A DNA stretch of 64,000 bases from Minisyncoccota bacterium (GCA_028718635.1 JAQULK010000001.1:24626-88625); one strand, 5' to 3'; counted from the first letter of the stretch, positions 5,973-40,548 are shown. Program-made: numbers and translations. Notes: a model not told the origin generated them from the letters alone.

Positions 5973-7045
5973 TCATTATTTGTTTTTGCTAAGATTTTAT
6001 CTTTTTCAACGTCATTTAAAAATTCCATCAAAATCACTGCAAGTGGAATAGCCAGAATCGCTCCCCAAATTCCTCCTAATTCAAAACCAACAACCACAGC
6101 TAGGATAATAACGATCGGCGAAAGTCCGACGATCTTTTTTATTATAAGCGGAGTAAAGAGAAACACATCAAATTCATGCACAATTACATAAGCTCCTGCC
6201 ACCATAAAGGCACTGCCTAAGCCGTTTGAAAGATAAGAAAAGGCAAAGACTGGAATCATCGCTACTAGAATACCATAAGGAACCATTTCCATTATTCCAG
6301 TAATGATAGCCAAAAGTAAAGCATATTCTATGCCCAAAAGAGAAAGTATCAAATAAACGAGAACCCCGACGACGAAACCTAAAAGCATTTGTCCTCTGAC
6401 CCAAAGACCTATTTTACGGCTGGAACGTGTCCATAAATCTACAATATATTTGTCGTATTTAGCAGGAACGATAATATAGAGAAAATTTTCTATCCCTTTT
6501 TCTTGGACTGAAAGATAAAAAGAAAGAAGAACAATCAATACAAAATTGAAAAGGCCTCCAAAAGCAATGAAAAGAACTTGAACAAACCCTCCGGAGAGAT
6601 TTAGAACAAAAGCTTTTGATATAGACAAAAGCGTTGTGATCGAAAAATGCCCCGAGAGAGATCCGACAATGTCTTTAGCGCCAGAAAATGCTTCATTCCT
6701 GAAGAAATCAAAAAAAGAAACATTGGGCATATAGGTAGAAATAAAAGTGGAGAAATTGTAAATTTCTGTTATCAAAAGCGGAGCAAAAAGGTAAAACAAT
6801 CCAGCTAAAATTAGAATGGAAATAGTGTAAAAAATAACAATCCCGAAAACTCTGTTTTTAATTCCGATTTTTTTCAAATGCGGAACAGAAGAATCGATAA
6901 AAGAAGCAATCACAATTGCTGTCAAAACCACCAAAACCAGATCCCTCAAGATATATAATAAAAATATAAAAAGAGGCACTAAAAAAAATTTCACGATAGT
7001 GCTGGTAGATATAGAAATACGCGTAAAATCACCTTTTTCTTGCAT
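5963..7045 (-). CDS. Polytopic membrane protein, AI-2E (PerM/UPF0118)-like transporter family
   Basis: 360 aa, about 8 predicted TM helices, length and hydropathy pattern match AI-2E family; stop codon TAG lies inside the arm of the 5854-5972 element. Confidence 0.45.
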   Translation of the reverse strand: MQEKGDFTRISISTSTIVKFFLVPLFIFLLYILRDLVLVVLTAIVIASFIDSSVPHLKKIGIKNRVFGIVIFYTISILILAGLFYLFAPLLITEIYNFSTFISTYMPNVSFFDFFRNEAFSGAKDIVGSLSGHFSITTLLSISKAFVLNLSGGFVQVLFIAFGGLFNFVLIVLLSFYLSVQEKGIENFLYIIVPAKYDKYIVDLWTRSSRKIGLWVRGQMLLGFVVGVLVYLILSLLGIEYALLLAIITGIMEMVPYGILVAMIPVFAFSYLSNGLGSAFMVAGAYVIVHEFDVFLFTPLIIKKIVGLSPIVIILAVVVGFELGGIWGAILAIPLAVILMEFLNDVEKDKILAKTNNESR

Positions 7046-8358: not shown

Positions 8359-9726
8359 TTAATTAATTTTCTCTTTAATATAATTTTTTAAATCTACCAC
8401 TTTTATTCTCTCTTGTTTTGCTGTATCTCGATCGCGGACAGTCACAGTGTCGTCTTCCAAAGTATCAAAATCAACCACAATACAAAATGGCGTGCCGATT
8501 TCGTCTTGTCTTCTGTATCGCTTCCCGATGTTGCCATTGTCATCCCAAGCTACTCTTCCAAATTCTTCTTTAAGTAATGCATAAACTTTTGTATTCGCAT
8601 ATTCCACAAGCTCTGGCTTATTTTTTAATAATGGCGAAACAGCACAAATAACTGGCGCAATACTTGGTTTAAGCTTCAAAAATACTCTGACGTCTTTCTC
8701 ACTTGCCCCGTCGGAAGCTTCTTGCTTTCCTTCGGGGTCTTCTGTGTAAGCCGAGACGAGCAATGCCAAGAGCGCGCGCCCCACTCCGAAAGTCGGCTCT
8801 ATGACATGAGGAATAATTTTGGCGCCTTTTTCTTCATCCAAATAATCAAGCTTGTGGTTTTTTAAATCAAAATCTGTCCTATATGCAAGCCCGAAAAGCT
8901 CGCTTCTCCCGAAAGGAAAATCAAATTCAAAATCAATCGTCCGGCTGGAGTAATGCGCTCTGTCTTTTTTGGACACTTCCAATTCGTGGACTTTGTTCAT
9001 ATCGATCCCCACCTCTTCCATCCAATCAAGCATTTCATCTTTCCAATATTCAAAATATTTTTCCCAATCTTCACTCCTAATAAAATATTCTATCTCCATT
9101 TGTTCAAATTCACGGACTCGGAAGATAAAATCGCGGGGATTAATTTCATTTCTGAATGCTTTGCCTATTTGCGCCGTACCAAAAGGAAGTTTGGGATGGA
9201 AAGCATCCACGGTATTTTTGAAATTTACAAACATTCCTTGCGCTGTCTCCGGTCGAAGATAGGAAATTGAGGAAGAATCATCAGCCGCGCCGACTTTCGT
9301 CTGAAACATCATATTGAATTTTTTTTCTTCTCCTAATTTTCCCTTACATTCGGCACATTTTATTTTGTCTTCAATTTGATCGGCTCGGAATTTTTTTCGG
9401 CATTTCTCGCACTCCACCATCGGGTCCGCAAAACCCGCCACGTGGCCAGAGGCTTGCCAGACTTCTTGACGCATCAAGATGGATGCATCAATGCCGTACA
9501 TATCACGGCGAGAATCCACAAATTTTTTCCACCAATTTTGGGTAATATTATTTTTCAAAGCCACTCCAAAATGCCCGAAGTCCCAAGTGCCTCCTAGACC
9601 GCCATAAATTTCTGAACCCTGAAAAATAAACCCTCGTCTTTTACAGAGCGAGACTATTTTTTCCATCAGATTATTCTTTTCTTCCTGCCTGCCGGCAGGC
9701 AGGTCTTTTTTGTTTTCTTCTTTCAT
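8359..9726 (-). CDS. glyQS: Glycyl-tRNA synthetase (alpha2 dimer type)
   Basis: 455 aa; class II aaRS motifs, N-term FQGSEIYGGLGGTWDFGHFG, C-terminal anticodon-binding region. Confidence 0.85.
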   Translation of the reverse strand: MKEENKKDLPAGRQEEKNNLMEKIVSLCKRRGFIFQGSEIYGGLGGTWDFGHFGVALKNNITQNWWKKFVDSRRDMYGIDASILMRQEVWQASGHVAGFADPMVECEKCRKKFRADQIEDKIKCAECKGKLGEEKKFNMMFQTKVGAADDSSSISYLRPETAQGMFVNFKNTVDAFHPKLPFGTAQIGKAFRNEINPRDFIFRVREFEQMEIEYFIRSEDWEKYFEYWKDEMLDWMEEVGIDMNKVHELEVSKKDRAHYSSRTIDFEFDFPFGRSELFGLAYRTDFDLKNHKLDYLDEEKGAKIIPHVIEPTFGVGRALLALLVSAYTEDPEGKQEASDGASEKDVRVFLKLKPSIAPVICAVSPLLKNKPELVEYANTKVYALLKEEFGRVAWDDNGNIGKRYRRQDEIGTPFCIVVDFDTLEDDTVTVRDRDTAKQERIKVVDLKNYIKEKIN

Positions 9727-22371: not shown

Positions 22372-22407
22372 GTGTGGGTCCCCTGTCCTTATGACTCCGA
22401 GGGCGCA
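22372..22407. repeat. GTGGGTCCCCTGTCCTTATGACTCCGAGGGCG motif (family G), argS-dut spacer
   Basis: Shared 30-nt motif with 31708-31745. Confidence 0.55.
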
Positions 22408-26372: not shown

Positions 26373-26981
26373 ATGAAATTTGAGGAAATAAAATTTAACC
26401 TAGGAAGTTTTAAAGGCATCTCTAGTAAAAATATTGAGGAACATTTGAAGCTTTATGCTGGGTATGTAAAAAACACAAATTTAATTATTGAAAAACTTGA
26501 AGAATACGAAAAAATATCTGAAACCAGAGAGCTAGCCCCGGAAGTTGTTTATTTAGTGGGAGAACTACATAGAAGATTCGGCTTTGAATTCAATGGAATG
26601 AGAAACCACGAATATTATTTCAAGTCTCTAGAAGGCGAAGCCAAACCCCTACCTGAAAATTTTCAATTAAAAATTACGATTGAAAAACAAGGACAATCGT
26701 TTGATCTATGGCTCAGGGATTTTAAAAATCTGGCGATGACCCGCGGAGTCGGCTGGGCAGTGCTTTACTACGACAAACAAACAAAAAATCTCATATCTGC
26801 TTGGGTAGACGAGCACCACTTGGGACAATTAAATGGACTTCAGTGGATTCTTGGTATTGATATGTGGGAACATGCTTTCGTTTATGATTATCCGACCTCC
26901 GAAAAGAAAAAATACGTGGAAGCATTCTTTGAAAATTTAAATTGGGAGGTCATAGAAGAAAATTTCAAAAAGGCTCAGTAA
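26373..26981 (+). CDS. sod: Fe/Mn superoxide dismutase family protein
   Basis: 202 aa; FNGMRNHEYYF and DMWEHAFVYDY metal-ligand motifs. Confidence 0.7.
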   Translation: MKFEEIKFNLGSFKGISSKNIEEHLKLYAGYVKNTNLIIEKLEEYEKISETRELAPEVVYLVGELHRRFGFEFNGMRNHEYYFKSLEGEAKPLPENFQLKITIEKQGQSFDLWLRDFKNLAMTRGVGWAVLYYDKQTKNLISAWVDEHHLGQLNGLQWILGIDMWEHAFVYDYPTSEKKKYVEAFFENLNWEVIEENFKKAQ

Positions 26982-28551
26982 AGAATTTATTTATATTTCT
27001 GCCAAAAAGTTTATAAATAAAATAGGCATAAATAATCAGCGTAAGTAAAAATGGAAAATCTGGAAAAGTAAAAGCTGAAAATGGCAGGTTTGAAAAAAAA
27101 TTTATTACTCCAAGCTCGTAATGCAGAAATAAATACGAAAGAAAACCTGCCGGTATTGCCAGCACATAATAAATAAGCCCAAGAAAACCAGTGATGAAAC
27201 CGAGCATCATTGTAAAAGGAATAAAAGGTAAAATTAAAACATTGGCTGGCAGAGCCACCAGAGAAAAATTGCCCATTTTATAAAGAATAAAAGGAAAAAC
27301 AAAAACATAAGCAGCACAGGTGACGGACACAATGTCTCGCAATTCGAAAGTTTTTGGTACCCATAAAAAATATTTTTCAATTCTCGGAGCGAGAAAAATC
27401 ACCGCGACCGTCGCCAAAAATGAAAGCTGAAAAGAAACATCAAAAACTAGAAGAAAAGGATTGAGTAGAATCATCAACACTCCAGCCAACAATAACGCCC
27501 GCGCGACATCATAATTGCGGCCGGTCGCGCGGGCTACCAATGCCAGAGTCGCCATTATCCCCGCTCGGACTGCAGTCGAACTCCCGCCAGTCATTATGAT
27601 AAATAGAATTACTGTTAATATTCCCATTCCAATACCAAAATTTTTGGGAGCATAAGGTACTTTCGCCAAAAATTTCATAATCCATTCAGCCACAATCGTC
27701 ACATTGTATCCTGACAGCGCCACGATATGGATCGTACCGGTATTCACAAAACTCTGTCTTAAATCTTGACTAAAAGAAGATTTTTCACCCAAAATAAGCC
27801 CACCCAAAAGCAGATTCTCAGGAGCATTAATAGCAAAATTTATTTTTTCTAAAAATTTATCTTTAATTTGGAAAAGAGCACTTTGAATTACATTGCCATT
27901 TCCGCGGGCCTCGCCCGTCTGGCTACGGCCAAGGGAGACAATTTCAATTCTGGGATAACCCATCACATACAAAATCCCGTCTTTGCGCAAATAATTTACA
28001 TAGTCAAAAACTTTACCTTGGTCGGTAATAAAATTCTCCGGCTTTTCTAATTTCCCAAAAAAATTTATTTTGTCTCCATATTTATAATCTGTATCTAGAC
28101 TGGTAGACAATAAAATTTTAGTGGTGGGAAGAGGTTGGACATCAGGGGGACCCGATGTCCAACCTCTAGAAGTTACAAGCACCGTCAATTGCTGGTTATT
28201 TTCTTTTATACTAGGTTCATCAGTTATAACTCCATCGAGAGTTACTTTTTGCCCTACTTGCGACTCAAAAATATTTGGTGCTAAAACATCTACCATGTTA
28301 AATCTAAAAATTCCAAAACAAAAAGTCAGAAGAAAAATCGAAGCTAATATACCCCACTTGTTTTTTGCCTCGCCCGTAGGGCTATGGCCGAGGGAAATTA
28401 AAGTAAAAAACAAAAACAAAGCGAGAGCAATTAAGCCGAATAAAATTACCAAATAAAAATCTACCAAAAAGAAAGAGCGCAACAGCACTCCAAATAAAAA
28501 CCCAAAACAAGTTGTATAAAAAACTCTATCCCGCATAAAATAATTGGCCAA
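26965..28551 (-). CDS. comEC: ComEC/Rec2-family competence membrane channel (lacks MBL domain, which is encoded separately at 25487-26356); probable ATG start at about 28534-28536
   Basis: 528 aa; DUF4131-like N-terminal TM region followed by the competence channel domain; carries 3 in-frame palindrome insertions. Confidence 0.65.
   Translation of the reverse strand: MANYFMRDRVFYTTCFGFLFGVLLRSFFLVDFYLVILFGLIALALFLFFTLISLGHSPTGEAKNKWGILASIFLLTFCFGIFRFNMVDVLAPNIFESQVGQKVTLDGVITDEPSIKENNQQLTVLVTSRGWTSGPPDVQPLPTTKILLSTSLDTDYKYGDKINFFGKLEKPENFITDQGKVFDYVNYLRKDGILYVMGYPRIEIVSLGRSQTGEARGNGNVIQSALFQIKDKFLEKINFAINAPENLLLGGLILGEKSSFSQDLRQSFVNTGTIHIVALSGYNVTIVAEWIMKFLAKVPYAPKNFGIGMGILTVILFIIMTGGSSTAVRAGIMATLALVARATGRNYDVARALLLAGVLMILLNPFLLVFDVSFQLSFLATVAVIFLAPRIEKYFLWVPKTFELRDIVSVTCAAYVFVFPFILYKMGNFSLVALPANVLILPFIPFTMMLGFITGFLGLIYYVLAIPAGFLSYLFLHYELGVINFFSNLPFSAFTFPDFPFLLTLIIYAYFIYKLFGRNINKFFTEPF
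27908..27942. repeat. GCCTCGCCCGT..GGCTAYGGCCRAGGGA repeat (family S), in-frame in comEC
   Basis: Encodes SLGRSQTGEARG; GC-rich island. Confidence 0.65.
28131..28168. repeat. 13-bp-stem GC hairpin in-frame in comEC
   Basis: GAGGTTGGACATC AGGGGGACCC GATGTCCAACCTC; encodes RGWTSGPPDVQPL. Confidence 0.55.
28366..28397. repeat. Family S repeat, in-frame in comEC N-terminal region
   Basis: GCCTCGCCCGTAGGGCTATGGCCGAGGGAAA; encodes ISLGHSPTGEAK. Confidence 0.65.
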
Positions 28552-28571
28552 CCTGCCAGGTCAGCCATTGT
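28545..28571. repeat. REP-like palindrome, degenerate copy (comEC-GNAT spacer)
   Basis: TTGGCCAACCTGCCAGGTCAGCCATTG. Confidence 0.65.
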
Positions 28572-29142
28572 GTTCTTTGTTAATTAAATCCAATTCCATT
28601 ATTTGGTATTCAGAAAGATACTTCGGGTCATTTCCAATAATTGGCAACGCCCTCTCTTCATCAAGTTTTTCAAAACCGAATTTTTCATAAAGTTTAATCG
28701 CTGCTCCTCTGCTAACTAACACCCAAAGTCTAACTTTTTCAGCGCCTTTCCTTTTTTCCTCGTCTAATATTGTTTTGAGCATTCTTTCTGCAATGTTTTC
28801 CCCAATAACACTTTTCCTAAAATTTGGTTTAAGGAAAACAGAATTTATTCTCCATACCCGAAGCTCATCTGAATTCGGACTTTTTACTCCTTTTATAATT
28901 CCTATTACCTCTGACCCATTTCTTGCCAAAACTATAATAGATTTTCCTAAATCTTCTTTCCATTCATTATCAGTTTGATTTCTTTCCACCCGAGCTTCAT
29001 CTTTAAAATATTTACCAGAGCCTTCGGGGTCTGTATCAATAGCTTCACATCTAATTTTTTTATATTCCTCCCAATCTTTTTCTGTAGCTATTTCTATTTT
29101 TAAAGCTAATTTTTCTTTATTCTTTAAAGGATTTTCTTCCAT
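28561..29142 (-). CDS. GNAT-family N-acetyltransferase
   Basis: 193 aa; acetyl-CoA-binding-like segment LWVLVSRGAAIKLYEKFGFE; sandwiched between two REP-like palindromes. Confidence 0.6.
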   Translation of the reverse strand: MEENPLKNKEKLALKIEIATEKDWEEYKKIRCEAIDTDPEGSGKYFKDEARVERNQTDNEWKEDLGKSIIVLARNGSEVIGIIKGVKSPNSDELRVWRINSVFLKPNFRKSVIGENIAERMLKTILDEEKRKGAEKVRLWVLVSRGAAIKLYEKFGFEKLDEERALPIIGNDPKYLSEYQIMELDLINKEHNG

Positions 29143-29186
29143 AAGTTTATGATATCAAAAAGTATCCGTTAAACATACACCCACTA

Positions 29187-29852
29187 TCAAATTGACCAAC
29201 CTGCCACGTCAGCCAATGGATTTTCAAGAAAATCTTCTAATTCTTTCATGTACTCTCTCGCGTTAGTATCAAATAAATCATAGAAAAGATCCACATTAGA
29301 AACATTTTCAAATTCACTTTTTGTAAAACAATCTCTAAAACTTGACCAACGATATGATTTCAAAAAATTTAGAATTTTCTTTGAATCATTTTTGGGGGTA
29401 TTTTTCCAATTTGGACATATAAGATCGGAACAATTAAGGTCAATATAAATTGGCATATATAAAAAATGATTATTTTTCAAAATAGGAATTATTTTTGCGC
29501 TATTCTGAAAAAGATACCCTCTTCTCCCTTTATTTTTAGTATTAAAATATTTTGTATATGCATTACCTAAACGTTTCGTAAATTCAAGAATTCCTCCTTC
29601 TGAAACTTCGTAAAGTAAAAGATGATAATGATTTGGCAACAAACTCCATTTTAAAATCTCCACTAACTTTTTTCTTCCAAACAAAATTTCTTTAATATCA
29701 TAAAGCGGATCCTTTCTGCGTATTCTAATTTTCCCATCTTGGTTATTTAAAAAAAGTAAGTTTTGCACAAATCTAAGATAATCAGATTCATCAATAAAAA
29801 TTTTTCTTTTTTCAACTCCCCTATTGCATATATGTGCTAAGTCACCAATCAT
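29187..29852 (-). CDS. IS200/IS605-like HUH (Y1) transposase, REP-associated tyrosine transposase (RAYT)-like
   Basis: 221 aa; HUH motif LLPNHYHLLLYE, downstream Tyr-containing helix (GNAYTKYFN); flanked by 27-bp palindromic REP-like repeats. Confidence 0.55.
   Translation of the reverse strand: MIGDLAHICNRGVEKRKIFIDESDYLRFVQNLLFLNNQDGKIRIRRKDPLYDIKEILFGRKKLVEILKWSLLPNHYHLLLYEVSEGGILEFTKRLGNAYTKYFNTKNKGRRGYLFQNSAKIIPILKNNHFLYMPIYIDLNCSDLICPNWKNTPKNDSKKILNFLKSYRWSSFRDCFTKSEFENVSNVDLFYDLFDTNAREYMKELEDFLENPLADVAGWSI
29191..29218. repeat. REP-like palindrome, degenerate copy (GNAT-RAYT spacer)
   Basis: TTGACCAACCTGCCACGTCAGCCAATGG. Confidence 0.65.
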
Positions 29853-29876
29853 GTTTAAAGTATAAACCTTTTCCCA

Positions 29877-29905
29877 GATTGGTCAACCTGCCAGGTTGAC
29901 CAATC
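29877..29905. repeat. REP-like palindrome, perfect 13-bp arms (RAYT-rnhA spacer)
   Basis: ATTGGTCAACCTG C CAGGTTGACCAAT. Confidence 0.75.
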
Positions 29906-30436
29906 TTATTTTTTCAATTTTATCGGCGCCTCTTCCGCAAAACTAGTCGCTATTTCGTCCGCTCTTTCGTTATGCTTGTCTCCATTGTGTCCTTTCACAT
30001 AAGTCCATTTTATTTTCTCCCTGTTTGGCAATTTTGCAAACTCTTCAGTAAGTTTATGTAGTTCTTCCCAAAGAGCGCGATTTAAAACTGGCTCTTTTTT
30101 GGCATTACGCCATCCATTCTTTTGCCAATTAAAAATCCATTCCGTAATTCCCAAAATCACATATTTAGAATCAGAAACAATTTCCACATCATCCCCAACC
30201 AAGCCTTGCTTAAATAAAAACTTCAACGCTTCAATTGGCGCAGTCAATTCCATTTGATTGTTTGTCGCGTGTTCCACTCCTCCCCCGATTTCAAAGACCC
30301 CCTCCTCACTCCTCCCCCTTAACAAGGGGGAGGTTGGGTAGGGGTGAATTATAAAAACAGCCCCCCAGCCAGCTTTCCCCGGGTTCCCTTTCGCCGCTCC
30401 ATCCGTATAAATTTTCATACTATATTCTTTTTGCAT
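29906..30436 (-). CDS. rnhA: Ribonuclease HI with in-frame palindrome-encoded insert
   Basis: 176 aa; IYTDGAAKGNPGKAGWGAV...TNNQMELTAPIEAL...HNGDKHNERAD matches the RNase H fold; about 20 extra residues (HPYPTSPLLRGRSEEGVFE) between beta-strands. Confidence 0.8.
   Translation of the reverse strand: MQKEYSMKIYTDGAAKGNPGKAGWGAVFIIHPYPTSPLLRGRSEEGVFEIGGGVEHATNNQMELTAPIEALKFLFKQGLVGDDVEIVSDSKYVILGITEWIFNWQKNGWRNAKKEPVLNRALWEELHKLTEEFAKLPNREKIKWTYVKGHNGDKHNERADEIATSFAEEAPIKLKK
30296..30350. repeat. Family P palindrome, in-frame inside rnhA
   Basis: CCTCACTCCTCCCCCTTAACAAGGGGGAGGTTGGGTAGGGGTGAATT. Confidence 0.75.
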
Positions 30437-30438
30437 TT

Positions 30439-32232
30439 TTATAATATATTCTCTACCCTTAATCTTAACTCAACTCTCCCTCTAAATCTAGATAAATCAA
30501 AAGTGGCTAGAAGATTGACTGTTTTGTTCTCCGCAATAGGTATATCAAAAGAATCATAATCAGAGAAAAATGAAATAGCCGTGGCTTTGCCGGATAAGTC
30601 AGAAAAAACAATTTCCAAATGTTCTCCAGATCCATTTTTACCAAATTTTTTTATTTTTTCTATCTTGATGTCAGGAAAAAGGAAAACGGGTTTAGGATTT
30701 CCTATTCCAAAAGGTGCGAGCTTTTCCAGTTCTTTCCAATTTTTCATGTTGACGTCAGAAAGAGATAATTTCATATCTTTGATGTTTTTCCCCTCCTTAA
30801 TTAAGGAGGGGTGCTCCGATTCAGATCGGAGCGGGGTGGTAATTTTTTTAAAAGAAACAGACAGCGCTTCCTCTAAAAAATGAATTTTATCATCACAAAC
30901 GGTAAATCCTCCTGCGAGTTCGTGTCCGCCAAAGTCCACAAATGATTCGCTGTTCTCGCTCATAAGCTCCACAACAGAGACCGACCCATCGCTCCGACAA
31001 GAACCTTTAATGCAATTATTTTCATCTTTCGCCCACACAAAAACAGATTTTTTATATTTATCTGATATTTTCCCTGCCACTAATCCTAAAACTCCCACTT
31101 TCCACTCTGGGTTACCTATCACTATCACGTCCGTTTCTATTCCATTCTCGAATTTTTTATCAATATGCTTATTTACATCACGCATAATATTTTTTACTAT
31201 GTTTTTCCTTTCATCATTTATCTTCGACAAATGATCTGAGAGCAGACCTGCTTTCGCCTCATCTCTTGTGGAAAGAATTTCATAAGCTCGCATAGGGTCA
31301 TCCATTCTCGAGGCTGCGTTTAATCTGGGCGTTACCATAAAACCAATATCGTCCACTGATAAATATCCTTGCTCGATTTTCATTTTCGCTAAAAGTTTCT
31401 GCAAACCCGGTCGGGCAGATTTCTTCAGAACTTTCATTCCGAAATAAGCGATAGCTCTGTTTTCACCGGTAAGGGGAACCATGTCAGAAAGGGTCGCCAA
31501 ACCTGCCATATCCAACATCCATTTTTCCTGACCATTTTTTATCCCAAAATTCTCATTCTCTTTGCCGTATTTATGAATAAAACCTTGCATAAATTTAAAA
31601 ACAACGCCTGCTCCGCAAAGCATTTTTTCCGGATACTCATCCACTTTTGGATTCAAAATTGCATAGGCGCGAGGCAGTAAAAATTCAGACTGTAAAAAAT
31701 TAAGGAGTCGTGGGTCCCCTGTCTTTTCGACTCCGAGGGCGAAGGCGGGAGAATTTTTTATGGGCTGAATTTTTTGTTTTGGCAAGTGGTGATCAATGAT
31801 TATTACATCGATGCCGTCTGCTTCCGCCTGAGCCACTTCAGCCACCGCAGTGATTCCAAGATCGACCGTAATCAACAATTTCACTCCGTTTTCTGAAAAT
31901 TGTTTTATGGCAACGAGGTTGAGCCCATACCCTTCAGAATTTCTCAGGGGTATATAAATTTCATAATTTTCATATCCAACCAGTTTAAATAAGTCGTTAA
32001 AAATTACCGCCCCTGGAATTCCATCACAATCATAATCTGCATAAATGATTATTTTTTCCTTATTCTCTATGGCCTCATATAGCCTTACGCAAGCCTTCTC
32101 CATATCCCGCATTAAAAAAGGATCATAAAAATCGCGCTCATAACTTGGATTTAGAAAAATTTCTGCTTGCTCCGCATCGGCAACTCCTCTTTTTTCCAGA
32201 AGCGTCCTCAATAATTCGCTATACTTTTGCAT
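30439..32232 (-). CDS. recJ: Single-stranded-DNA-specific exonuclease RecJ
   Basis: 597 aa; DHH motifs (DYDCDG, ITVDLGITA, IIDHH), DHHA1 domain; two in-frame repeat insertions. Confidence 0.8.
   Translation of the reverse strand: MQKYSELLRTLLEKRGVADAEQAEIFLNPSYERDFYDPFLMRDMEKACVRLYEAIENKEKIIIYADYDCDGIPGAVIFNDLFKLVGYENYEIYIPLRNSEGYGLNLVAIKQFSENGVKLLITVDLGITAVAEVAQAEADGIDVIIIDHHLPKQKIQPIKNSPAFALGVEKTGDPRLLNFLQSEFLLPRAYAILNPKVDEYPEKMLCGAGVVFKFMQGFIHKYGKENENFGIKNGQEKWMLDMAGLATLSDMVPLTGENRAIAYFGMKVLKKSARPGLQKLLAKMKIEQGYLSVDDIGFMVTPRLNAASRMDDPMRAYEILSTRDEAKAGLLSDHLSKINDERKNIVKNIMRDVNKHIDKKFENGIETDVIVIGNPEWKVGVLGLVAGKISDKYKKSVFVWAKDENNCIKGSCRSDGSVSVVELMSENSESFVDFGGHELAGGFTVCDDKIHFLEEALSVSFKKITTPLRSESEHPSLIKEGKNIKDMKLSLSDVNMKNWKELEKLAPFGIGNPKPVFLFPDIKIEKIKKFGKNGSGEHLEIVFSDLSGKATAISFFSDYDSFDIPIAENKTVNLLATFDLSRFRGRVELRLRVENIL
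30790..30839. repeat. Family P-like double hairpin, in-frame inside recJ
   Basis: CCCCTCCTTAATTAAGGAGGGG + GCTCCGATTCAGATCGGAGC; encodes TTPLRSESEHPSLIKEG. Confidence 0.7.
31708..31745. repeat. Family G motif copy, in-frame inside recJ (encodes ALGVEKTGDPR)
   Basis: GAGTCGTGGGTCCCCTGTCTTTTCGACTCCGAGGGCG with GAGTCG/CGACTC stem. Confidence 0.55.
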
Positions 32233-35784: not shown

Positions 35785-36324
35785 TTAATAACTCCCTCTT
35801 AAAACAATCGTATCATAAAAATCTTGAGTATTGCCTGATGTATCATTGGCAGACTTAAGAGTTAAAACTATTTTAACTGCTTTTCCTTTGGTCGTATTTA
35901 TTTGAGTAAAAGCGAGAGCGGTCACTGTAGTATTGGGTGAATTTAGGTTTCCAATATTACTACCGGTATCCCAAAGTTGAATATTCGGACTAATAAATTT
36001 AAATTCAGTGGTTTTGCCACTTCCAGCATCAAGCACTAAATCATTTGTGCCGATGGAGATGATTCCGTTCGCTTGCCTGATTTCTCTCGACATCCTTTCC
36101 ATGATACTTCCACTTTGTACTAGTTCTGCCTGTATAGTAGTTTCCTTAAACGATCTTGCCATTGTTATCATGGCATTGATCACCAATGAAGAAAGAACCG
36201 AAAAAAAGGCAATATAAAAGAGAAGTTCTAAAACACCATATCCACCAGACAGCGCCTTAGGCGCTGTCTGAGCGCCTAAGGCGCTGTCTGGTTTTGTTTT
36301 CGCAGTTTTTCGCAGTGTTCGCAT
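35785..36324 (-). CDS. Type IV pilin-like (prepilin-type) protein; N-terminal region extended by two palindromic repeat copies
   Basis: 179 aa; class III signal SGG|YGVLELLFYIAFF with Glu at +5. Confidence 0.5.
   Translation of the reverse strand: MRTLRKTAKTKPDSALGAQTAPKALSGGYGVLELLFYIAFFSVLSSLVINAMITMARSFKETTIQAELVQSGSIMERMSREIRQANGIISIGTNDLVLDAGSGKTTEFKFISPNIQLWDTGSNIGNLNSPNTTVTALAFTQINTTKGKAVKIVLTLKSANDTSGNTQDFYDTIVLRGSY
36244..36290. repeat. CCAGACAGCGCCTAAGGCGCTGTCTGG palindrome, tandem 1.5 copies, inside the 5' coding region of pilin-like gene
   Basis: Encodes KPDSALGAQTAPKALSGG just before the prepilin cleavage motif. Confidence 0.6.
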
Positions 36325-37644: not shown

Positions 37645-40548
37645 TTATTTTATAAGATTTTCAATCTGACTCAAAAGATTAATAAGTGTCTGCGCATCAG
37701 TATCAGATATTTTATCTTTCCCAGCTTCTCTCAATATACTGCTTGCTAAATTAGATGGGACTCTAACTAACGTTCTCTTTTTTTCAAGATTGGATATTTT
37801 TCTCAAGAGACTTTGTTTGAACTTGTCGCTAATAACTATCATAGATATTTCTTCTTTAAGAAGCGCAATAAGTCCATTAAGAGAAAGACCTTCGTCTGGG
37901 GGAATTATTTTAATTACTCCTTCTCCATTCACATCAAGTTTTATGGTCGTATTTTCTGGTGTAGCACTTTGCACAGTGAAAGTCGCAGCAGTCGAACTTG
38001 TTGTTGGAATATCTGTATATGAAACTATTGGCGTTGCCACATCGGCAGTAAAATTTTCAATCGCAACAGTGGTTGGTCCATTGCCATCTCCTTTGTAGAT
38101 GAAGTTGTAATTACCCACCTTGGGTAGAAATATATTTTGACTTCCACTCGTGTAAAGAAACGTGCTTCCTGGAATATTTTCTTTAATAGAGAGTACATTA
38201 GCAGAAAGGTCTTGATTTGGATCAATACCAGTAAAATTTCCAAGTTGATCATATACACCAAGAATGACGGGAGAGTGAGTACTGACAATAAGTTGGTCAC
38301 TAAGGTTTGCTACTAGTGGTTTCGTGGTTGATAGAAAATCTATATTTGTAATATCTTCTTTTTTAGTTACTGATTGTATTAAGTTCTGTAATGTATTTGT
38401 GCTGAGTAAGTCTCGATGTTGAGCATTAGAATTAAACGCTTTGTTGTAATCTATAATGTTGAAAAAATATGTTTCATCAGCAACCAACGAAACTGCACTT
38501 GGAAAAACAACCGTTCCATCACCCTCGATAGTAAATTTTGTATCATAGTTTGGATATCCATGATCCATTTTATATTCAATAGATTTTGTTGTCGGACTAC
38601 CCCAACCTGCAACCTGAACAACGCGAATATGATCTGGAAATTGATAATTGTCGTATGTACTATGAAAATTGGCAGCATTTGTCATAAACTCAGGTCGCAG
38701 TACTTCCGGGTCCTGTAGGTTTTGTTCTATTGGTTTGGTGCGTATTATTCCTGTCCCAGTCACAAATGATAGAAAACCAGAGTAGGTATTGATAGCTGTT
38801 CCCCAGAAATCTCTCCATACTTGAGTAAATGGAGCATCTGTATTGAATGTGATAACTGGATTCGATATCTTAGTAAAATATTGAGGAGAAGGAAGTAAAT
38901 TATAGGCACTAGGCATATTTTGAGCTATTCTACGTATACCTATAGGGTTAGTTATTAACCCAGCCACAATTCCTTCATCGTCTCCATGAAGTATCGAAGC
39001 TACCGCTTGCGGTGTTCCAAGCTGGGGTGTACCTACCATCACAAAAGAATCAATTATATTATCTTTCCCTTCGTCTTGAAGTTTTTTTATTATTGTCTTT
39101 CCTAGAAAACCCCCCATAGAATGAGCAATGATTGTAACTTTTCCTGTTTTTGATTGCGATGCAAGGGTTTCTATTTCTTGCATGACATCAACTGTTCCAT
39201 TGGCTGTTTTTACACCATTTTGAAGTATTGTTTCCGGCGAGAATCTCCAATCATACGCAAATGGTATCCATTCCTTCATTGTTCCATTGGCAACCAAACC
39301 ATTCATGAAATTTGAAAAGGGAGCATATATTGGAGTGCCGTAAAATGTATTCAAAACACCATCAGTATGAACATCATTCACACTTTCACCGCTAGTTGTA
39401 AGCGCTAGTTGGGATACATCGTTAAAACTAAATATTGTCGGTGGCCAAAGTGTATCTGAACCAGTTTTCAAAACACTTCCTTTAATTCCTGGTAGAAAAA
39501 GAACACTTGAACAACACGGATGCTGCACAGGTTCACCAATTGAAATTTTACTGATAATATTAGAATTAGGATTAGTTACCCACACAGAATTTGTGACACC
39601 CTCAAAGGCGATATCATATGGTTTTGTCGCAACCGCATAATCAATTTTTGCGCCAGTGTAAATATCTACTTTGCTAATAGTATTAGAACTATAATTTGTT
39701 ACCCATATTGAATTGGTTGTGTTGTCAAAAGTAGCATTAAATGAATCCGCCCCCACCGCATAATCGGCCATAGCACCAGTAAAGATATTTACTTTAATGA
39801 TGGTGTCAGCAAGGTAACTTACCGCCCAGACAGAGTTGGTGATATTATCAAATGCAAGGCCATATAATTGCTCATTGCCCAATCCTGTTGAATAATCAGT
39901 TCTTACTCCCGTATAAATGTTTACTTTACTAATGAAGGGAGAATAATTTCCTATCCATATAGAGTTTGTAACATTATCGAAAACAATACCTCGAGGATAA
40001 TACCAGTCAAAATAATCTGTTCTAGCACCAGTAAAGATATTTACTTTGCTAAGTATACCGGTAGTCTCGTCAGTGGTTACCCACACAGAATTTGTGACAC
40101 CCTCAAAGGCGATATCATATGGTTTTGTCGCAACCGCATAATCAATTTTTGCGCCAGTGTAAATATCTACTTTGCTAATAGTATTAGAACTATAATTTGT
40201 TACCCACACAGAATTGGTCACATTGTCGAACGCTACCGCCCGAGGGTTTATTCCAACCGCATAATCAATTTTTGCGCCAGTGTAAATATCTACCTTACTG
40301 ACAGTGTTAGAATGATAATTTGCAACCCACATTGAATTGGTTATTTTATCAAAAGCAACTCCAATGGGATAATCCCCTACTGGATAATCAACCTTAGTGT
40401 CTGTTGGAAGAGTCACGATTTGTGCGGAAGTGACACTAACCAAAGAAAAAAACGAAAAAATAACAAGCGAGACTAGTACAAAATTACACCAGTGTTTTAT
40501 TTTAATCATTAAGGTAATTATATAACTTTGCTTAAGATACACAAACAA
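37645..40548 (-). CDS. Large surface protein: N-terminal YVTN-type beta-propeller repeats + C-terminal alpha/beta-hydrolase (lipase/PGAP1-like, GHSMGG) domain
   Basis: 967 aa; signal/TM at N-term; about 7 repeats of VDIYTGAKIDYAVATKPYDIAFEGVTNSVWVTNYSSNTISK; lipase nucleophile elbow IIAHSMGGFLG. Confidence 0.55.
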   Translation of the reverse strand: MFVYLKQSYIITLMIKIKHWCNFVLVSLVIFSFFSLVSVTSAQIVTLPTDTKVDYPVGDYPIGVAFDKITNSMWVANYHSNTVSKVDIYTGAKIDYAVGINPRAVAFDNVTNSVWVTNYSSNTISKVDIYTGAKIDYAVATKPYDIAFEGVTNSVWVTTDETTGILSKVNIFTGARTDYFDWYYPRGIVFDNVTNSIWIGNYSPFISKVNIYTGVRTDYSTGLGNEQLYGLAFDNITNSVWAVSYLADTIIKVNIFTGAMADYAVGADSFNATFDNTTNSIWVTNYSSNTISKVDIYTGAKIDYAVATKPYDIAFEGVTNSVWVTNPNSNIISKISIGEPVQHPCCSSVLFLPGIKGSVLKTGSDTLWPPTIFSFNDVSQLALTTSGESVNDVHTDGVLNTFYGTPIYAPFSNFMNGLVANGTMKEWIPFAYDWRFSPETILQNGVKTANGTVDVMQEIETLASQSKTGKVTIIAHSMGGFLGKTIIKKLQDEGKDNIIDSFVMVGTPQLGTPQAVASILHGDDEGIVAGLITNPIGIRRIAQNMPSAYNLLPSPQYFTKISNPVITFNTDAPFTQVWRDFWGTAINTYSGFLSFVTGTGIIRTKPIEQNLQDPEVLRPEFMTNAANFHSTYDNYQFPDHIRVVQVAGWGSPTTKSIEYKMDHGYPNYDTKFTIEGDGTVVFPSAVSLVADETYFFNIIDYNKAFNSNAQHRDLLSTNTLQNLIQSVTKKEDITNIDFLSTTKPLVANLSDQLIVSTHSPVILGVYDQLGNFTGIDPNQDLSANVLSIKENIPGSTFLYTSGSQNIFLPKVGNYNFIYKGDGNGPTTVAIENFTADVATPIVSYTDIPTTSSTAATFTVQSATPENTTIKLDVNGEGVIKIIPPDEGLSLNGLIALLKEEISMIVISDKFKQSLLRKISNLEKKRTLVRVPSNLASSILREAGKDKISDTDAQTLINLLSQIENLIK
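39579..39715. repeat. About 137-bp exact intragenic duplication (copy A) in beta-propeller gene
   Basis: Identical to 40075-40212; a third partial copy near 40258-40300. Confidence 0.75.
40075..40212. repeat. About 137-bp exact intragenic duplication (copy B)
   Basis: CCCACACAGAATTTGTGACACCCTCAAAGGCGATATCATATGG... Confidence 0.75.

Follow-up and report, generated by a model that had tools for sequence, protein, structure and literature searches.

TnpA transposases of the IS200/IS605 group of insertion sequences (ISs) are short proteins (~150 amino acids) that carry a Y---Q motif and often occur with tnpB. The benefit that domesticated transposases of the RAYT (REP-associated tyrosine transposase) type bring to their hosts is still debated. 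A canonical REP (repetitive extragenic palindrome) has a GT[AG]G tetranucleotide at the foot of its hairpin, 0-2 nt on the 5' side, and REPs are described as species-specific (PMC6006769); perfectly palindromic REPs are known for one group of TnpA_REP proteins (PMC8266576). Within the TnpA_Y1 superfamily, subclass 2.1 is the same as group 1 of Bertels, and most TIRYTs described by Di Nocera et al. 2013 fall into it (Quentin et al. 2018, PMC6006769; PMC5581495, PMC3733652). Proteins of this subclass have an expected length of ~238 amino acids and were reported without nearby REP-like structures (PMC6006769). The motif GGGGWSAS is common to TIRYT repeats, which lie at fixed distances from the gene, sometimes are self-complementary and are at most moderately abundant (PMC3733652). 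Systems of this kind, known as REPtrons and TIRtrons, are the closest relatives of the locus described here, which lies in a 64-kb window of Minisyncoccota bacterium (the whole stretch of 64,000 nt that was analyzed, to which all counts of copies in the window refer; G+C content 37.7%). This locus is probably a REPtron/TIRtron-like unit, in which a domesticated, single-copy Y1 HUH endonuclease gene of the IS200/RAYT superfamily is bounded by two copies of a cognate DNA hairpin.

The HUH gene (positions 29187-29852, minus strand) encodes a protein of 221 amino acids that is recorded as hypothetical protein PHT16_00280 in a metagenome-assembled genome (MAG) named 'Candidatus Pacebacteria bacterium' (contig of 671,958 bp), and the exact protein also is matched on a 3.4-kb Logan contig. 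The original prediction, made from the sequence of the window, had pointed to an HUH motif (NHYHLLL) and a catalytic-tyrosine helix in this open reading frame (ORF), and these motifs are present and invariant in 55 homologues. The ORF contains PNHYHLLL and YMPIYIDLN, which place the HUH motif at H75-Y-H77 and the tyrosine motif at Y132/Y136-IDLN140; a WSS tail motif is found at 169-171. In the alignment of the 55 homologues, residues H75, H77, Y132, Y136, D138 and N140 do not vary, and the same is true of an N-terminal H7-x2-N10-R11-G12 and of four residues in G112-Y113-L-F115-Q116, in which leucine 114 is variable. The H75/H77 motif aligns to DHVH of ISDra2 TnpA, and a family profile, in which the HUH motif is aligned too, puts Y136 opposite Y132 of the same transposase.

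Searches with the single protein against Pfam, NCBIfam and the PDB gave only sub-threshold Y1 or RAYT matches (ISDra2 TnpA is found in the PDB at E = 0.08), so a family profile and structure prediction were needed. Among the 55 family members, 44 reach the Pfam Y1_Tnp model at E <= 0.01, the best of them at 8.2e-6. The AlphaFold (AF2) model of the protein has a predicted local distance difference test score (pLDDT) of 89 and a predicted TM-score (pTM) of 0.88, and it includes a helix at 127-144, which carries Y136, and a confident helical bundle formed by the C-terminal 75 residues. When this model is compared with the PDB by using Foldseek, the top match is 4er8_A, which is E. coli TnpA_REP/RAYT bound to a REP hairpin, and the next are the IS608 and ISDra2 transposases (2a6o_A, 2xo6_A). 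All three matches have probability 1.0, with target-normalized TM-scores of 0.49-0.58 and E-values of only ~1e-3. Judged from motifs and predicted fold, this Y1 HUH enzyme belongs to the TnpA_Y1 superfamily and has intact catalytic motifs, and its earlier assignment to the IS200/RAYT type holds.

A homologue search returned 473 matches. The best 120 of these are 53-79% identical to the window protein and mostly 210-240 amino acids long, and the organism names among them all belong to lineages of Patescibacteria, or candidate phyla radiation (CPR), or to unclassified bacteria. Some pipelines annotate family members as 'REP-associated tyrosine transposase' or 'putative transposase'. Upon clustering at 50%, the family makes up essentially one cluster; the superfamily around it is large and counts 325 clusters at E <= 1e-30 and 3,317 at E <= 1e-10. 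No C-terminal domain resembling Bac_DnaA_C, HTH_23 or HTH_28 was detected by Pfam at E <= 0.01 in the window protein or in family members.

Homologous loci (Patescibacteria where named) were dereplicated to 63 gene clusters; the 5' side could be evaluated in 61 of them and the 3' side in 58. Within the stretch 25-75 nt ahead of the ATG, 59 of the 61 distinct loci have the core GTCAACCTG-S-CAGGTTGAC with at most three mismatches, and 56 of the 58 have a core of the same stringency at the stop codon. The center of the 5' hairpin, where detected, mostly lies 39-43 nt before the ATG; that of the 3' hairpin precedes the end of the ORF by 8 to 57 nt or follows it by 13 nt. Random 130-nt windows of the same loci, used as a control, typically have 6-7 mismatches in their best match. 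Loci of other species in which CAACCTG-S-CAGGTTG is seen encode homologues with 47-79% identity, and the annotated ends of many family members read 'STWQVD', which is the translated hairpin. The palindromes, compared across these sequences, are cognate flanking hairpins of the HUH gene family and not peculiar to the locus in the window.

The structure of the hairpin was assessed by using 167 distinct hairpins from homologous loci, with non-Patescibacteria MAGs excluded. Base pairs at offsets 2-9 from the center are essentially invariant (GTCAACCTG and CAGGTTGAC around a 3-nt loop), which gives a core of 19 nt that does not change across lineages. Offsets 10-14 vary between lineages, with 65 different 5-mers, yet remain complementary: the outer stem is 78% Watson-Crick paired. 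Shuffling of partners among the sequences lowers this value to 42% (no more than 48% in any of 1000 shuffles), and sliding of the partner gives 19-35%. A covarying outer stem combined with a fixed tip indicates a folded nucleic-acid hairpin with a sequence-specific tip, as opposed to a simple duplex operator. No orientation bias of the central base was found. In two loci (L138, 180-230; L152, ~8540-8560), half-hairpins of CAACCACCCAGGT are tandemly duplicated twofold before the 5' hairpin, or nested double hairpins occur beside it; these arrangements suggest slippage or instability at the element.

In the window, CCAACCTGCCANGT with at most one mismatch is matched only at 28548, 29196 and 29883, where 0.02 matches are expected by chance. 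The full 25-mer with at most three mismatches is found only at 29879-29903 (0 expected), and the 15-nt core with at most three substitutions finds the same three copies only. The 5' hairpin (AGATTGGTCAACCTG-C-CAGGTTGACCAATCT, 29876-29906) is a 100% complementary inverted repeat with arms at 29876-29890 and 29892-29906. Its center is 39 nt upstream of the HUH ATG, and it directly adjoins the stop codon of the RNase H gene. The 3' hairpin remnant (TTGACCAACCTG-C-CACGTCAGCCAA, 29192-29216, center 29204) has three core mismatches and overlaps the last HUH codons (...ADVAGWSI and stop). The third palindrome (TTGGCCAACCTG-C-CAGGTCAGCCAT, 28544-28568, center 28556; repeat family D12) forms a weak hairpin that holds the stop codon of a GNAT gene and extends over the TTG listed as the start codon of ComEC. 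Both of these degenerate copies have the private arm variant GTCAGCC. As folded single-stranded DNA (ssDNA), the 5' hairpin has a predicted energy of -14.4 kcal/mol (z = -8.3), the third palindrome -5.1 kcal/mol (z = -1.0) and the 3' remnant -0.7 kcal/mol, which is not better than shuffled sequence. Of the three 27-bp palindromes proposed earlier, all exist, with slight changes in length and position; only one is perfect, and this copy is longer than had been stated and comprises 15+1+15 nt. An Rfam scan of 28300-30100 gave nothing relevant.

Hairpins of this family also occur apart from the gene. A scan of GTDB representative genomes for TCAACCTGSCAGGTTGA gave at least 120 blocks, in which copy numbers per genome are lower bounds. 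About half of the matches listed are from Patescibacteria (Zambryski-, Nomura-, Kaiser-, Giovannoni- and Saccharibacteria, and Paceibacterota), and about half of the single matches in other phyla probably are due to chance. Related genomes hold roughly four to eight or more hairpin copies in total, numbers that are one to two orders of magnitude below those of classical REPs. At least eight copies are found in each of Parcubacteria C7867-005 and GW2011_GWA2_47_21, some of them at a distance from the gene or on different contigs. A homologue with 74% identity to the window protein is encoded by Nomurabacteria NC_groundwater_834, in which at least six copies occur, including copies on other contigs.

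Solo copies mostly lie in short intergenic gaps, and several are in frame inside long ORFs, where hairpins in essential genes of other Patescibacteria are translated as (V/L)ST(W/C)QVD. In the arginyl-tRNA synthetase (ArgRS) of a Zambryskibacterium (L060, 5168-6751, hairpin at 6465-6479), the residues VSTWQVDT replace a variable linker of equal length, which is present instead of the hairpin in the ArgRS orthologues of the window and of a syntenic relative (L005). A second in-frame hairpin is found in Tgt (L028, 5387-6607, hairpin at 6024-6038), and the single orthologue compared (L016) has a different insertion there. The ArgRS and Tgt hairpins represent gain events, which implies that the element moved or was copied.

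The 15-nt hairpin core also forms REP-like families in three MAGs outside the Patescibacteria. In Bacteroidota KLAP35, the copies number at least 13 and have a conserved left flank of 25 nt in common (on L008, L040, L044, L046, L047, L049, L058, L088, L091, L096, L111 and L124). In this MAG, a distant HUH relative of 226 amino acids (L046, 2166-2846) with the motifs NHFH, YIHLNP and YSS is located between two hairpins, which are ~290 nt and ~130 nt from the ends of its ORF. Cloacimonadales E21 has at least eight copies, some of which are in tandem clusters ~75 nt apart (L020, L034, L082, L102, L126). A Melioribacteraceae MAG has three (L039, L050, L105), in which TGTAGG before the core corresponds to the canonical GTAG foot; this foot was found only in these three copies.

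The 5' hairpin is part of a promoter-like site of the HUH gene (29859-29886, minus strand), which consists of a -35 box TTGACC (29886-29881), a 16-nt spacer and a -10 box TATACT (29864-29859). This site matches 10 of 12 consensus positions and ties for the best score in the region. The -35 box is the right arm of the hairpin, an arm that reads TTGAC(C/A), and the HUH ATG follows 6 nt after the -10 box; the HUH mRNA would be leaderless or nearly so. Among distinct upstream regions of homologues, 44 of 57 have TANNNT 15-19 nt after the hairpin TTGAC, and most of the remainder have GAGAAAAT-type boxes. The role of a hairpin arm as -35 box explains the fixed spacing of about -40. Binding or extrusion of the palindrome would be expected to occlude the promoter. 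At the other side of the locus, ATTATTTTAT on the minus strand follows the third palindrome, and the two together look like a terminator of an HUH-GNAT transcript.

It is conceivable that the palindromes are expression signals only, namely a promoter or operator at the 5' end and a terminator or mRNA-stabilizing hairpin at the 3' end, to which the HUH protein, or some other factor, would bind purely for regulation. Solo copies then would be terminators or promoters that share the sequence by chance, and neither cleavage nor mobilization would take place. The fixed distance of the -35 arm to the -10 box and ATG at the 44 of 57 loci fits such a role, and so do the T-rich tail after the third palindrome on the coding strand, the small number of copies per genome and the location of many solo copies 5-50 nt past stop codons, some of them between convergent genes. 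However, a promoter requires TTGAC only, yet the 19-nt core is invariant and the outer stem covaries. The presence of hairpins at both ends of a gene for an HUH nuclease with intact catalytic residues points to recognition of the hairpin by the enzyme. Moreover, the in-frame copies in ArgRS and Tgt cannot be promoters or terminators, and two MAGs outside the Patescibacteria have accumulated at least 13 and at least 8 copies of the core, two of which, in KLAP35, flank a distant HUH relative. An exclusive role in expression is therefore unlikely.

The gene order on the minus strand is RecJ (30439-32232), RNase H (29906-30436), the HUH ORF, GNAT and ComEC (26965-28551). In syntenic relatives (L005/L128, L131 and L134), the order RecJ, RNase H, HUH, a variable slot, ComEC and superoxide dismutase (SOD) is kept, and parts of the RecJ-to-SOD order are found on the short contigs L130 and L138. 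In syntenic comparisons, the HUH proteins are 75-78% identical, versus 56-71% for RecJ, RNase H, ComEC and SOD, so the HUH gene evolves more slowly than its housekeeping neighbors. The gene is present once in the window. Two family members that lie together at one locus (L165) share only 55% identity and are each accompanied by hairpins of their own. Neither the protein nor the hairpin has a match in 50,697 phage records or in IMG/VR, and 72,556 plasmids gave only two weak protein matches (24-25% identity); a phage or plasmid origin was rejected on these grounds. A single copy in the window, synteny, slow evolution, divergent paralogues and absence from the viral collections are traits that have been described for RAYT/TnpA_REP genes and not for IS200 (PMC5581495, PMC8266576). 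A single copy, which the original prediction had named as a RAYT hallmark, is what the 64 kb contain, in a gene that is syntenic and more conserved than its neighbors.

The locus does share with IS200/IS605 elements (IS200, IS608, ISDra2) the fold, the HUH/tyrosine chemistry and the arrangement of subterminal hairpins on either side of a tnpA-like gene. The ends of IS200 itself are perfect palindromes (PMC8266576), and its upstream hairpin is close to the promoter region. The locus might, then, be an active or recently active minimal IS200-type IS, ~720 bp from hairpin to hairpin, that moves by peel-and-paste ssDNA transposition, with the GNAT segment as the passenger of a composite derivative. 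Indels beside the gene that are bounded by hairpins, as seen between the window and L005, would agree with such mobility. In contrast, there is one copy in 64 kb, and it resides at the same chromosomal site in lineages whose neighboring genes are 56-71% identical. The gene is slower-evolving than these neighbors, and co-resident paralogues are 55% identical and not near-identical. Phage and viral collections have no copies and plasmids nearly none, and the local 3' hairpin does not fold. Unlike IS200/IS605 transposases, the window protein has a Y---N (class 2) motif in place of Y---Q and is 221 amino acids long in place of ~150, with ~70 extra C-terminal residues. The locus also lacks tnpB, being surrounded by RNase H, GNAT and ComEC, and the same hairpin is used at both ends. 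A mobile IS is therefore highly improbable.

The unit resembles the E. coli TnpA_REP/RAYT (YafM, PDB 4ER8) REPtron in several respects. Both comprise a Y1 HUH gene with a class-2 Y---N motif, housekeeping-like and, as far as the window shows for the present one, single-copy, that is bordered by cognate palindromes; further palindromes of the same kind are found at other genomic sites, some of them within genes; and the E. coli protein is the best structural match of the window model. However, hairpins of the window family lack the GT[AG]G foot, number a handful in place of tens to hundreds, share an identical core across the whole lineage and beyond, and are built into the promoter. Also, the window protein is longer than its E. 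coli counterpart and scores far under the NCBIfam RAYT cut-off. The original prediction of a REP/RAYT-like module stands as regards a RAYT-like gene with cognate flanking hairpins, but the window has no dispersed REP population, the hairpins lack the GT[AG]G foot, and the motif signature is not that of the classical REP-associated subclasses. With the foot missing, few copies and scores under curated cut-offs of hidden Markov models (HMMs), this is not a canonical REP/RAYT system.

The motifs of the window protein (NHYH, G-Y-L-F115-Q116, YIDLN(C/P), W169-S-S171; 221 amino acids) were compared by eye with Table 1 of PMC6006769. They match those given there for TnpA_Y1 subclass 2.1, which are NH[YF]H, FQ at the 'W' position, Y[IV]xLN[P] and an 'SS' proximal-tail motif in ~220-240 amino acids. 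By motif comparison only, the family thus appears to correspond to this TIRYT-like subclass and not to the classical REP-associated subclasses. As in TIRtrons, the flanking repeats are at fixed distances from the gene, are self-complementary as some TIRYT repeats are, and form families that are at most moderately abundant. Unlike the repeats of TIRYTs and subclass 2.1, the flanks are perfect hairpins with a different invariant core, GTCAACCTGSCAGGTTGAC, instead of GGGGWSAS, and the window protein has no Pfam-detected C-terminal domain of the DnaA_C or HTH type. The module is best filed as REPtron/TIRtron-like and RAYT-like in operation, and not among proven representatives of the classical REP-associated subclasses.

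The slot between the HUH and ComEC genes is hypervariable in syntenic relatives, whose flanking genes are 56-78% identical. In the window, the slot holds a GNAT acetyltransferase gene (28561-29142, minus strand, 193 amino acids; Acetyltransf_1, E = 1.1e-10). It is empty in L005 (10657-10776), contains an unrelated ORF in L131 (1033-1562), and contains GNAT genes only 31-36% identical to that of the window in L134 (2067-2546) and L138 (965-1216). The window and L005 differ in two places. GNAT and the third palindrome, between the HUH 3' hairpin and ComEC, are found only in the window, and a 1.26-kb segment with two unknown ORFs and one hairpin, between RNase H and the 5' hairpin, is found in L005. 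Both indels therefore consist of an insert plus one hairpin. The third palindrome has the private substitutions of the 3' remnant, and an extra hairpin in L133 likewise has both mismatches of its 3' hairpin, which indicates that extra copies arise by duplication of a resident hairpin.

The most economical reading is that the flanks of HUH genes are prone to turnover, by recombination between hairpin repeats or by hairpin-targeted insertion. GNAT is a neighbor in such a slot and not demonstrated cargo. Its proposed status as a passenger was not borne out: the third palindrome duplicates the 3' hairpin and has decayed, the contents of the slot are variable, and elsewhere hairpins bracket housekeeping genes. 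In a locus from Zambryskiibacteriota (L067, 64-2008), the HUH gene and the segments on both of its sides are marked off by four hairpins, and each of the two segments contains small, putative RelE/ParE-like toxin ORFs that were recognized by reading the sequences.

By analogy only, folded single-stranded hairpins that bound variable genes beside the gene of a DNA-processing enzyme resemble the attC cassettes of integrons. Perhaps the hairpins are recombination sites of a cassette platform that uses HUH chemistry, from which GNAT-type genes are captured and excised as hairpin-bounded single-stranded circles. Suggestive of this are the two independent indels between the window and L005, on the GNAT side and on the RNase H side, and the extra hairpins that share private mismatches with the 3' hairpin in both the window and L133. 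L193 and L196 have four to five hairpins within 1 kb, and L067 has toxin-antitoxin-like ORFs in both flanks. However, the density of extra hairpins within 3.5 kb of the gene exceeds that at greater distances only 2.4-fold, a difference without statistical significance (p = 0.11). Hairpin-delimited segments elsewhere contain not only toxin-antitoxin-like pairs, a hydrolase and a P-loop kinase but also the housekeeping genes for prolyl-tRNA synthetase (ProRS) and an SMC-like protein, and the slot genes of L134 and L131 are present without a third hairpin. Unlike integrons, the locus has no tyrosine-recombinase integrase, and ordinary recombination-deletion between direct hairpin repeats accounts for the indels equally well. 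The integron-like idea, which neither the enrichment statistics nor the gene content supports, was downgraded and is very unlikely.

If the locus is a REPtron/TIRtron-like unit, its operation may be pictured from better-studied relatives. By analogy with TnpA_REP and IS200/IS605 TnpA (structures 4ER8, 2VJV and 2XM3; PMC8266576), the enzyme would bind the hairpin folded on ssDNA, probably through the invariant sequence of the stem tip. As E. coli TnpA_REP and the IS608 transposase do, it might cut and rejoin DNA beside the hairpin by way of a 5'-phosphotyrosine intermediate, and these reactions could occasionally seed new hairpin copies. Binding at the upstream hairpin, which bears the promoter, would autoregulate the leaderless transcript, and the downstream hairpin would lie at the 3' end of the mRNA.

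Several observations weigh against a REPtron/TIRtron-like unit. The window protein on its own scores 17.9 bits with Pfam Y1_Tnp (PF01797), which is under the gathering cut-off of 23 (E = 0.0035), such that the HMM check suggested earlier gives matches at E <= 0.01 for most of the family and falls short of the cut-off for this protein; with NCBIfam NF047646 (REP_Tyr_transpos), it scores 14.1 bits versus a cut-off of 80. A GT[AG]G tetranucleotide is present at the hairpin foot in only 2 of 334 arms of the 167 Patescibacteria hairpins, and no conserved guide or tag was found at this foot. The window contains no solo hairpin outside the module. The density of hairpins away from the gene is ~1 per 100 kb in metagenome loci of relatives, with which zero solo copies in 64 kb are consistent. 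Active dissemination of hairpins is not demonstrated by these sequence comparisons. Because the 5' hairpin is within the promoter, its conservation could reflect regulation more than DNA processing. Finally, two of the three local copies have decayed, and only the 5' hairpin still is a stable one. With its 3' remnant and third palindrome decayed, the local module probably is no longer a mobilizable unit, which suggests that only the promoter-linked hairpin remains functional at this locus.

A literature search found no paper that links REP/RAYT systems with Patescibacteria or CPR, and none that contains the hairpin sequence. Although this kind of system is already known, new features, as far as found, are a family-wide module in Patescibacteria, a cross-lineage invariant 19-nt core common to other phyla, a hairpin that is integrated in a promoter, and hairpins that accompany a subclass 2.1-like protein. 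REPtron/TIRtron-type modules would thereby be extended to Patescibacteria, and a subclass 2.1-like TnpA_Y1 protein would have true hairpin flanks, which this subclass was earlier reported to lack. Patescibacteria have extremely reduced genomes, and a tightly constrained transposase-like gene is retained despite this reduction. The invariance of the core across very divergent genomes makes the protein-DNA code easily testable in vitro, and the low copy number makes every gain or loss of a hairpin traceable.

A more far-reaching proposal is that the hairpin and the nuclease are a lineage-wide host function of Patescibacteria and not a transposon relic. A Y1 HUH enzyme, under tighter constraint than the housekeeping genes beside it, would recognize one invariant ssDNA hairpin, which also builds the promoter of its gene, and would process ssDNA in replication or DNA uptake; through this processing, neighboring genes such as GNAT would be gained and lost between hairpins. 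In the lineage of the window, the HUH gene is located between RecJ-RNase H and ComEC. At present, this proposal is speculative and unlikely to be correct.

The window also contains repeats other than the HUH-linked hairpin. Another G+C-rich palindromic repeat, CCCCTCTCCTTAWTAAGGAGAGGGG(YTGGGGAGAGGTGAATT), has at least seven copies (3961, 4360, 13755, 30309, 43766, 51798 and 55519) and is far commoner in the 64 kb than the HUH-linked hairpin; four copies are in frame in long ORFs, including that of RNase H (30309). Inverted pairs of CATCCCGTTAGAAGCAGGTCGCGGTC and GCGACCGCGGCTTCTAACGGGA, ~70 nt apart, are intergenic at 1700/1770, 5853/5922 and 41783/41855, with partial copies at 2284, 2906, 52729 and 52759; the pairs make up a further repeat family and would form long stem-loops. 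Additional short repeats or palindromes rich in G+C, such as GCCTCGCCCGTAGGGCTATGGCCGAGGG, GGTTGGACATCAGGGGGACCCGATGTCCAACC, CCAGACAGCGCCTTAGGCGCTGTCTG and GTGGGTCCCCTGTCC, are located at 27902 and 28361 (in the ComEC ORF) and 63573, at 28130-28165, at 36245/36265/51510 and at 22374/31710, and several are tolerated within coding sequence. Tandem repeats of ~123 nt (families D1-D3) occur at 39547-40397 within an ORF of 967 amino acids (37645-40548, minus strand), and this arrangement suggests a repetitive surface-type protein.

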